A DNA stretch of 11,674 nt from Escherichia coli (GTDB lineage: Bacteria > Pseudomonadota > Gammaproteobacteria > Enterobacterales > Enterobacteriaceae). The stretch lies in assembly GCF_003334335.1 (NCBI RefSeq), contig NZ_QOWQ01000063.1; one strand, given 5' to 3'. The position numbers are program-made. Position 1 is the stretch's first letter. Each line of letters begins with the position of its first letter. Positions 6,001 to 9,000 of the stretch are shown here, one piece after another.

Positions 6001-9000
6001 CAGCGGGCCGAACAGGAAGCCGCACTTCTTCGGGGACAGATAGCCGAAGAAAAACGCCTGGTTGAACTGCTGACGTCTCAGATCCACCAGGCCGGTATGA
6101 AACCCGCACCGTTACCGGAAAACGAAAAAATCTCTGATGAGAAGATTGCCCGTATCAGGGAGATGTATCCGGAAATTGGTGACGCGGTGGCTTCGCTCAT
6201 CCGTAAAAATAACTATCTCCAGTCCCGTGTTCAGCAATCAGCACAGCAGGCAGAAGGTCATGGTGGTGAGGATTTATCACCGGTTCTTGATGCGATGAAT
6301 GCCGTGCCGGTGCTGAAAACGTGGCAGAACTCCGATCCGGATCGCTTCTCGGTTGCCGTATCCATCGACGGGAAGCTCCAGAATGACCCCGCATGGAAAG
6401 ACAAACCGCTCACTGAACGTTTCGCCGAAGTGGCCCGCCGTACGCAGCTTGCTTTCGGTGAAGCCAGTGAGCCGCCTTCTGATGACAAGGCAGACAACAC
6501 GGATATCCGGAAAACGGCGGAAGAAAAAGTGAAAGCCGCTGAACGGGAGATGGCAGTGCCTGCTTCCCCGTCAGAGCTTGGCAACACGGCTTCCGTCGGA
6601 ACCGGTGATAATTTTGAACGGTTACTTGGTGCTTCCCATACCGAAATTGAAGCAGCCATGCGAGGCATGACGGACGCTGAAATTGACGCGATTCTGGAAA
6701 AACTCGGGTAACCACTGAAGGAGTACTGACGTAATGACCACAGTAACAACAGCCCAGGCGAATAAGCTGTATCAGGTGGCGCTTTTCACGGCTGCCAACC
6801 GCAACCGCTCAATGGTGAATATACTCACTGAACAGCAGGATGCACCAAAAGCAGTTTCGCCTGACAAGAAAAGCACGAAGCAGACCAGTGCCGGTGCACC
6901 GGTTGTGCGAATCACGGACCTCAACAAACAGGCCGGTGATGAAGTGACGTTCAGCATCATGCACAAACTCTCTAAACGTCCGACGATGGGGGATGAGCGC
7001 GTTGAAGGCCGTGGTGAAGACCTCAGCCATGCTGATTTTTCCCTGAAAATTAATCAGGGCCGTCACCTGGTGGATGCGGGCGGACGTATGAGCCAGCAGC
7101 GTACGAAGTTCAACCTGGCATCCTCTGCCAGAACGCTGCTGGGTACGTACTTTAACGACCTGCAGGACCAGTGTGCGATAGTGCATCTTGCCGGTGCCCG
7201 CGGTGATTTTGTTGCTGATGACACCATTCTGCCAACGGCAGATCACCCTGAATTCAAAAAAATCATGATCAACGACGTACTGCCGCCGACGCATGATCGT
7301 CATTTTTTCGGTGGGGATGCGACGAGTTTTGAGAGTATTGACCAGTCTGACCTGTTCACTCTTGCGCTGGTCGATAATCTCTCACTGTTTATTGACGAGA
7401 TGGCTCATCCGTTACAACCGGTACGCCTGTCCGGTGATGAGCTGTATGGCGAAGATCCGTATTACGTCCTCTACGTCACGCCGCGTCAGTGGAATGACTG
7501 GTACACCTCCACGTCCGGCAAGGACTGGAACCAGATGATGACGCGTGCCGTAAACCGCTCAAAAGGTTTTAACCATCCGCTGTTTAAAGGCGAATGTGCG
7601 ATGTGGCGCAATATTCTGGTCCGTAAGTATGCGGGGATGCCGATCCGTTTCTATCAGGGGTCAAAGGTTATGGTGTCGAACAATGACCTTACGGCAACGA
7701 TGGCAGAAAAGGCTGCTGCAACCAACATCGACCGTGCCATGCTGCTGGGGGCTCAGGCGCTGGCGAATGCGTACGGTCAGAAGGGCGGCGGTCACTTCAA
7801 CATGGTTGAGAAGAAAACGGATATGGATAACCGTACTGAGATAGCAATCAGTTGGATCAACGGTCTGAAAAAAATCCGTTTCCCCGAGAAGAGCGGCAAG
7901 ATGCAGGATCACGGTGTTATTGCCGTTGATACCGCAGTGAAGCTGTGATTTTTCCTTTCCCCATGCCGGGTTATCGCCCGGCTTTTTCAGGAGTCATTAA
8001 TTATGGCAAAGACTATCCTTGCTCCGTCACTGAGTGAGCGGGTTTATTCAGGTACGCATGGTAATGAGTCGGTGGCAGAAGGTGTGTTTACAGTGAATGC
8101 TGCCGAACAGGAAACCGTTATTAATCTTCTCTCACTGCCGACTGGCGTTCGCATTAATGGGATCCAACTGATTTCAAAAGGTGGTCTTGGTGGTACGGCG
8201 ACCGTCAGCGTTAAATCTGGCAAGCATGAGCTCATTGGTGACAGTGGTGCAGTAACTGCCAGCTTTGCTAAATATGTGCCAGTGGAGCCGTACACCACAC
8301 AGAGTGATGGAGAGCTGGTTACGGTCACCATTAAGACAGCTGCTGCGACCGGTACCCTGAATGTTCTGCTGCGTTATACCGTGGTGGGATACTGATATAA
8401 ACCTTCCGGCCCGCGTCATGCGGGCTTTTTTATCCGGGGAATTATATGAGCGAGAAAATTGCCGTTGTCTATATCGGCCCCAAACCCGTGAAAAAGGATA
8501 CCCTTACCGGGAGTCGTACACTGTTCCCGCGTCTTGAGCCGGTGCATGTTGACAGCGCGCTTGCCTGGCAGTTGCTGGCCTTTCCGGATGTCTGGGTTCG
8601 TCATGAAGAGCTTGATGGTGTGCTCAAAAAGCAACAACAGGATGAGCAGTTGCGGCAGGCACAGCAGGCGCAGGAAAGAGAACAGGTTGCTCTTGCAGAA
8701 GCGGAGAACAGTTTTGTGGTTAGCGTTGGTGGTCAGGATGTGGATTTGAGCAAACTCACGTCCGCACGGCTGGCAACGTTGTGTGAGGCAGAAGAGCTGA
8801 ATATTCACAAAGACCCGAAAGAAACGGCTGATGCATTTCGTGTCCGTGTGCGTGAGGCATTTCGCCGTCGTGTTGCGGAGACTGAACAGCATGGCGGAAC
8901 TGACTGATTTTTTACCGTATGTCCGTCGCCATATCAGTGGTCCGCTGAGCATTATGATGACGGATGCATTATCCATGTCGGCAGTGGCATTCTGCCGTCA

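Follow-up and report, generated by a model that had tools for sequence, protein, structure and literature searches.

A putative GP4-type cement gene between positionally conserved hairpins in the head module of a 933W-like podophage

Introduction

Shiga toxin (Stx) phages spread Shiga toxin genes, and the majority of their late genes still have no annotation beyond 'hypothetical'. Here we analyze a gene of 130 amino acids (aa) located directly after the major capsid gene, together with the two terminator-like hairpins that flank it, in an 11,674-nt stretch of Escherichia coli DNA (contig NZ_QOWQ01000063.1, assembly GCF_003334335.1; hereafter the window, meaning that whole stretch). Sequence comparison assigns the window to a 933W-like (Sepvirinae) Stx-type podophage, of which it is the head and tail module. 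Bases 5500-9500 share 100% identity with Escherichia phage PhiR5_2 and 88-97% identity with ~190 Stx-converting and related Sepvirinae podophages, including 933W, VT2-Sakai/Sp5, P13374 and POCJ13.

Results

Organization of the capsid/cement interval

A first-pass annotation of the window proposed that the 130-aa gene directly follows the capsid gene, carries a Shine-Dalgarno (SD) sequence of its own and is flanked on both sides by terminator-like hairpins. Inspection of the interval reveals all of these elements, which are listed here with the neighboring genes and a third hairpin of the same class.

5563-5588, plus strand: third terminator-like hairpin, after the portal gene, with a T-run to 5593; same element class and same operon
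6734-7948, plus strand: gene for the major capsid protein (404 aa; HK97 fold of the N4/GP4 type), orthologous to Sp5 ORF62
7965-7987, plus strand: upstream hairpin in the capsid/cement gap; stem 7965-7982 (GCCGGGT/GCCCGGC, six G-C pairs and one G-U pair) with the 4-nt loop TATC, then T5 at 7983-7987
7989-7993, plus strand: SD sequence AGGAG of the putative cement gene, 9 nt before its ATG; the ribosome-binding site is annotated in the orthologous record KU238070
8003-8395, plus strand: cement-type gene, 130 aa, ATG start; orthologue of Sp5 ORF63/ECs1224 and, by position, of 933W L0117
8408-8431, plus strand: downstream hairpin in the gap between the cement-type gene and the 153-aa gene; stem 8408-8426 with six G-C pairs, T6 at 8426-8431
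8446-8907, plus strand: 153-aa gene, orthologue of Sp5 open reading frame (ORF) 64, PHROG 482; first gene past the second hairpin

The product of gene 6734-7948 matches PHROG 334 (E 8e-176) and, in the PDB, the GP4 capsid protein 8h89_A (E 6.7e-40), with the Pam1 capsid protein as a weak match, and Pfam Phage_capsid_3 is present on its orthologues. Genetics and immuno-electron microscopy establish the orthologous Sp5 ORF62 as the capsid gene (PMC5155283).

A promoter scan of the window returned as many sites as expected from shuffled sequence and no sigma-70-like site near either flanking hairpin, and gene 8003-8395 is therefore not regarded as an independent transcription unit. Three minus-strand ORFs (8044-8331, 8174-8419 and 8416-8976) are annotated in no relative and were for that reason discounted as shadow ORFs.

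One further feature of the interval concerns translation. A UUCCU motif at 7952-7956, 3 nt past the capsid stop codon, can pair with the AGGAG at 7989-7993, enclosing the upstream hairpin, and comparable anti-SD/SD pairings of 3-5 bp are predicted in several relatives. Such pairing could couple translation of the cement gene to that of the capsid gene. As a candidate element it was set aside, since helices of only 3-5 bp are expected by chance in pyrimidine-rich spacers.

The 130-aa protein resembles phage cement proteins

The first-pass annotation described the product as Gly/Thr/Val-rich and guessed at a beta-rich decoration or cement protein. The composition agrees (16 Thr, 16 Val and 15 Gly among 130 residues, or 36%), and the guess is supported by a profile match to the cement protein of phage Pam1, by the GP4-type capsid gene next door and by occupation of the same slot in GP4-like genomes. 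Structure prediction with fold comparison, which had been suggested as a check, likewise came out in its favor. An exhaustive family search gathered 53 cluster representatives, down to ~26% identity, and a 48-sequence alignment was used for modeling with AlphaFold (AF2). The resulting all-beta model (predicted local distance difference test, pLDDT, 93.3; predicted template modeling score, pTM, 0.86) comprises beta strands and one short helix, and four cement proteins head the ranking when it is searched with Foldseek. The 130-aa protein is modeled as a single-domain beta-sandwich/jellyroll within the ~120-160 aa range that superposes on solved cement proteins. No such fold match was found for the other decoration folds considered, namely lambda gpD, T4 Soc, the OB-fold of phage L Dec and the immunoglobulin-like Hoc, N4 gp17 and T5 pb10.

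Profile comparisons point in the same direction. The family profile searched against the PDB reaches significance for the Pam1 cement protein (7eel_H, E 4.6e-5), followed by KHP40 gp16 (7dou_4, E 0.063) and 26de_W (E 0.087). Alignment of the family with GP4-like gp1 in hhalign spans 111 columns, which is most of the protein, at E 6e-4, a probability of 28% and 19% identity. This weak alignment sets the invariant G20-N21 on G22-D23 of GP4, which lies at the trimer axis, and the correspondence is a tentative hint of the same trimeric oligomer as in GP4. Neither Pfam, queried with the single sequence and with all 48 family members, nor NCBIfam yielded a match, and a single-sequence PDB search returned one chance match only (E 0.31). 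The protein matches PHROG 486, labeled merely 'virion structural protein', which is also the name that phage records give to the orthologues.

Gene order adds a further line of evidence. Loci of relatives were retrieved via exact-protein look-ups, and the succession of a 335-aa head gene, the capsid gene, genes of ~130, ~150 and ~190 aa and the adaptor gene is intact in every locus long enough to show order; the syntenic relatives include Paramixta, Salmonella, Vibrio and metagenomic loci. The GP4-like phage RPZH6 encodes a 157-aa 'virion associated protein' directly 3' of its capsid gene. The most likely product of gene 8003-8395 is thus a capsid cement, or decoration, protein of jellyroll type related to GP4 gp1. 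A search of the accessible literature found no paper linking 933W-type phages to a cement or decoration protein; the assignment is previously unnamed for the Stx phage group, and the protein class itself is known.

Of the head genes, the cement gene diverges fastest, with nucleotide identities of 83% to 933W and 87% to POCJ13 versus 89% and 95% for the capsid gene, a pattern that fits a surface-exposed protein. The divergence is centered on the middle third of the gene (8120-8240, about residues 40-80), where it may reflect diversifying selection on an exposed face.

Genetic data are available from Sp5, where an individual in-frame deletion was made of ORF63 (ECs1224, 129 aa), the gene next to ORF62 on its 3' side, and this deletion is outside the nine mutants that gave no plaques or lysogens (PMC5155283). 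Because the orthologue can be deleted with plaque formation and lysogenization kept, the 130-aa protein would, like many decoration proteins, be accessory and not an assembly factor.

Terminator-like hairpins occupy the head-module gaps

The two flanking hairpins rank first and second among terminator-like sites in a consensus scan of the whole window. A strict scan was also run, with minima of 6 contiguous pairs, 5 G-C pairs and 5 T within the following 6 nt, and with 200 dinucleotide shuffles as the control. On the plus strand it returned exactly three sites, the two flanking hairpins and the post-portal one, compared with a shuffle mean of 0.065 per strand and a maximum of 1, and these three fill the only three head-module intergenic gaps longer than 25 nt. 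Each conforms to the anatomy that defines an intrinsic terminator, namely a G-C-rich stem of 5-14 bp, a loop of 3-8 nt and an immediate U-run on the sense strand at the 3' end of a gene. The upstream spacer as a whole folds better than its shuffles (z = -3.3). An Rfam search of 5400-8700 at a permissive threshold gave a single result, a sub-threshold Trp-leader over the downstream hairpin (20 bits versus a gathering score of 41), which was treated as generic terminator resemblance. On the minus strand, the sole strict site is at 11032-11049 (GAGGCCCCCCCGGGTCTC, then CTTTTT), inside the tail-fibre region, and may be due to chance.

Hairpin position is conserved across diverged relatives

Among close relatives, the spacers share 94-100% identity, compared with 83-87% for the cement gene and 89-95% for the capsid gene. 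Both stems are invariant in these phages (the upstream stem in POCJ13, 933W, P13374 and phage 86), so that covariation cannot be counted among them. A diverged set of 12 lineages, including Paramixta, Salmonella, Vibrio, Ralstonia and Burkholderia phages, was analyzed by comparing the best 35-nt hairpin of each spacer with all windows of its own locus. In 10 of the 12 lineages, the best upstream hairpin ranks within the top ~2% of locus windows; the best downstream hairpin ranks within the top ~2.3% in 9 of the 12, with two more at 7-8%. Each percentile is a minimum over overlapping windows, so single values are somewhat optimistic and it is the pattern across lineages that carries weight.

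Stem sequences are unrelated among the diverged lineages, which share the position of the stem-loop. T-runs persist mainly among enterobacterial relatives, in both spacers of E. coli and Salmonella and in the upstream spacer only of Paramixta; certain metagenomic relatives, such as P0045 and P0049, have them as well. The flanking hairpins are real, non-random and conserved in position. Their recurrence at one position with unrelated stems, and the high spacer identity among close relatives, give indirect support to the first-pass proposal that they would act as attenuators or RNA-stability elements.

Neighboring genes and the post-portal spacer

The remaining annotated genes of the window are as follows.

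909-1715: small terminase
1696-3402: large terminase
3402-5546: portal
5704-6711: 335-aa head-formation gene, equivalent to Sp5 ORF61
~8891-9454: gene of ~187 aa, counterpart of Sp5 ORF65
9454-10104: gene for a 216-aa protein, orthologue of Sp5 ORF66, 'structural protein'
3' of the 216-aa gene: tail fibre gene

The 216-aa protein is probably the head-to-tail adaptor, because it matches the GP4 tail-complex chain 8jov_2 (E 8.5e-26) and its orthologues carry Pfam SU10_adaptor. In Sp5, deletion of ORF64 lowered infectivity, ORF65 was named the likely scaffold and ORF61 was given no role (PMC5155283). The ORF61-type gene at 5704-6711 occupies the usual position of a scaffold gene, just before the capsid gene, and the Sp5 scaffold assignments for ORF61 and ORF65 may be worth re-examining.

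The 157-nt spacer between the portal and 335-aa genes (5547-5703) contains the third hairpin followed by a second, long and imperfect hairpin at ~5590-5640, and its predicted folding energy is -54 kcal/mol (z -2.95 versus shuffles). Bases 5588-5703 are 100% identical in POCJ13, 933W, P13374 and phage 86, despite differing flanking genes. The spacer has no Rfam match, and one record annotates a 41-aa ORF within it. A long post-portal gap also occurs in relatives: it measures 271 nt in Paramixta, and in Vibrio phage douglas it comprises a small ORF and a further 321 nt. This spacer could be a processing site, a 5' untranslated region element or an internal late promoter. In Ralstonia phage RPZH6 (L018 2094-2291) and Burkholderia phage DC1 (L020 2506-2700), a CsrA-type 'carbon storage regulator' gene lies between the portal and capsid genes; this gene of GP4-like and Bcep22-like head modules has no counterpart in the window.

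Discussion

The explanation that best accounts for the locus combines a cement protein that coats the head with two hairpins that act as selected RNA elements, delimiting the capsid and cement cistrons within a long late transcript, and we place its probability as a whole at roughly 0.78. Under this explanation, the cement protein would be made from its own strong ribosome-binding site and would then join the expanded HK97-fold shell as a stabilizing coat. By analogy with GP4, it would bind the outside of that shell at about 1:1 with the capsid protein, and its trimers would probably cover the three-fold and quasi-three-fold capsomer junctions, reinforcing the head. The GP4 shell is T=9, with 540 capsid and 540 cement subunits, the latter arranged as 180 trimers over the quasi-three-fold axes (PMC9698820). 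A similar head is plausible for the present phage because the genomes of relatives found with its capsid protein are all ~55-65 kb. The virion location, stoichiometry and trimer state proposed for the 130-aa protein are those suggested by this analogy.

Late transcription in lambdoid and 933W-type Stx phages is carried out by Q-antiterminated host polymerase that resists terminators. Within such a transcript, the hairpins are most likely leaky intrinsic terminators that also form 3'-terminal barriers to exonucleases, so that messages ending after the capsid or cement gene would accumulate relative to those of the low-copy head-completion and tail genes downstream. A mixed role is favored, in which protection of 3' ends after processing would weigh at least as much as termination, because Q-modified polymerase resists terminators and because the scaffold-like and capsid genes also have such a hairpin ahead of them. 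A precedent for stepwise read-through of weak terminators is the N4-like phage LUZ7, with transcript boundaries mapped in its capsid gene region, and T7 is likewise cited (PMC9163698).

Several observations weigh against this explanation. For the protein, sequence likeness to gp1 of GP4 is weak (hhalign probability 28%), and our searches, those by locus tag included, found no accessible direct evidence for the protein in Stx-phage virions. A 2025 study of enterohaemorrhagic E. coli phage gives peptide coverage for a 'virion structural protein', which is ambiguous, as two genes are so named in the record. The viable Sp5 deletion means that the protein is not needed for head assembly or packaging, and any cementing role would therefore be conditional. 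For the hairpins, the downstream spacer as a whole folds no better than shuffles (z = -0.9), its core hairpin being strong nonetheless; two of the 12 lineages lack an upstream hairpin, in spacers of just 13-21 nt, and one, the Vibrio lineage, lacks a downstream hairpin. T-runs are absent or weak in P0055, in the downstream spacer of Paramixta and in the high-GC Ralstonia, Burkholderia and Pseudomonas phages. Under Q antitermination, intrinsic terminators would be largely read through. Finally, the post-portal hairpin precedes the scaffold-like and capsid genes, which are needed far above portal copy number, and pure step-down attenuation therefore misfits the three sites taken together.

The main rival for the role of the hairpins is insulation of the lysogen, which we consider unlikely on balance. 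Here, the hairpins would act mainly in the prophage, where in the absence of Q they would be efficient terminators that block spurious or read-in capsid expression, and they would be read through in lytic growth with no setting of ratios. Consistent with such a role, the canonical terminator anatomy, a G-C stem with 5-6 T behind it, is seen in E. coli, Salmonella and Paramixta, and these relatives are prophages; Q antitermination of the 933W-type late operon is established; and the post-portal site, where an attenuator would be counter-productive, has a hairpin too. Against it stand the stem-loops without T-runs that fill the same spacers in Ralstonia, Burkholderia, Pseudomonas and some metagenomic relatives, so that the conserved feature is the hairpin rather than the terminator. 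Placement exactly around the two highest-copy structural genes would also be unexpected for an anti-leak function.

A bolder extension, which we hold to be about as doubtful as insulation, is that the two stem-loops around the cement cistron form an undescribed and ancient dosage device of the whole 933W/GP4/Bcep22/F116 podophage supergroup. Segmental stabilization of mRNA, possibly together with opening of the anti-SD/SD helix (UUCCU 7952-7956 with AGGAG 7989-7993) coupled to ribosome release, would hold capsid and cement synthesis to a 1:1 ratio despite Q antitermination. The same proposal would place the fast-evolving middle of the protein (8120-8240), as an exposed surface, under diversifying selection, with contact to antibodies or glycans in the gut as one possible cause.

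Less probable again is the proposal that the conserved spacers are recombination linkers at mosaic lambdoid module boundaries, between which the cement gene is exchanged, with no role for the hairpins at the RNA level. The excess of spacer identity (94-100%) over that of the cement gene (83-87%) would fit exchange at such linkers, as would a divergence that peaks within the gene at 8120-8240 and drops toward both ends; the fall in identity into the gene is gradual, however, with no sharp junction. The hairpins are moreover strand-specific, with T-runs on the sense strand only, and distant relatives retain the stem-loop but not the sequence, which argues for selection on structure.

The least probable alternative, that the product is some other small beta-sandwich virion or accessory protein such as a neck or tail component or an adhesin resembling a carbohydrate-binding module, draws on the missing Pfam/NCBIfam family match and on virion presence being unproven in Stx phages, and it is countered by the sequence-level profile match to the Pam1 cement protein and by its place beside a GP4-type capsid gene, which corresponds to the positions of GP4 gp1 and of PhiXacm4-11 gp26 (beside gp25).

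The arrangement is an ordinary phage and regulatory one that does not overturn current understanding, and its interest is modest. Under the cement assignment, the Sp5 ORF63/933W L0117 family receives a name as a putative GP4-type cement protein, and the assignment predicts a GP4-like head, possibly T=9, that bears hundreds of cement copies; it also offers a reason for the dispensability of the gene in the laboratory. Since the protein would be a non-essential, abundant, surface-exposed and variable capsid protein, it would be a natural target for serological or mass-spectrometric typing of Stx particles, for display or tagging and for tests of particle stability in food and gut. The hairpins, in turn, provide precise and mutable sites for probing gene dosage in a Q-antiterminated late operon.

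Among known systems, the closest likeness is to GP4 gp1 (PDB 8H89 chain J; Ralstonia phage, Gervaisevirus). Both proteins form one small beta-sandwich domain, modeled here, and are encoded directly 3' of homologous capsid genes, and the phages belong to the same podophage supergroup, with genomes of ~55-65 kb and homologous adaptors. In GP4-like RPZH6, the cement gene is likewise flanked by G-C stem-loops, which lack a clear T-run. The present protein differs from gp1 in length (130 versus 157 aa, at 19% identity) and at GP4 Asp23, a cation site on the trimer axis that aligns with Asn here. For GP4, the T number, the trimer state and the presence in virions are solved; for the present phage they are predicted.

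The trimeric cements of Pam1 (7EEL chain H) and of the Helicobacter phages KHP30/KHP40 (7DN2, 7DOU) are also similar, with profile matches at E 4.6e-5 and 0.063. These cements reach the capsid E-loops by extended N- or C-terminal arms, in contrast to GP4 gp1, which does not (PMC9698820). Further likenesses are epsilon15 gp10, BPP-1 CP and PhiXacm4-11 gp26, which are small eight-stranded jellyrolls present at 1:1 with the capsid protein, and in PhiXacm4-11 the cement gene gp26 immediately follows the capsid gene gp25. These three are dimers across two-fold positions on T=7 shells and fall outside the top fold matches for the 130-aa protein.

For the hairpins, the nearest parallels are T7 T-phi, after gene 10, and LUZ7, where a sense-strand G-C stem with a U-run likewise directly follows the capsid cistron, a placement that lets high-copy structural mRNAs outnumber those downstream. 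The present locus differs in being transcribed by host polymerase under established Q antitermination rather than by a phage polymerase, and in having two hairpins, known here from sequence, that bracket a separate cement cistron.

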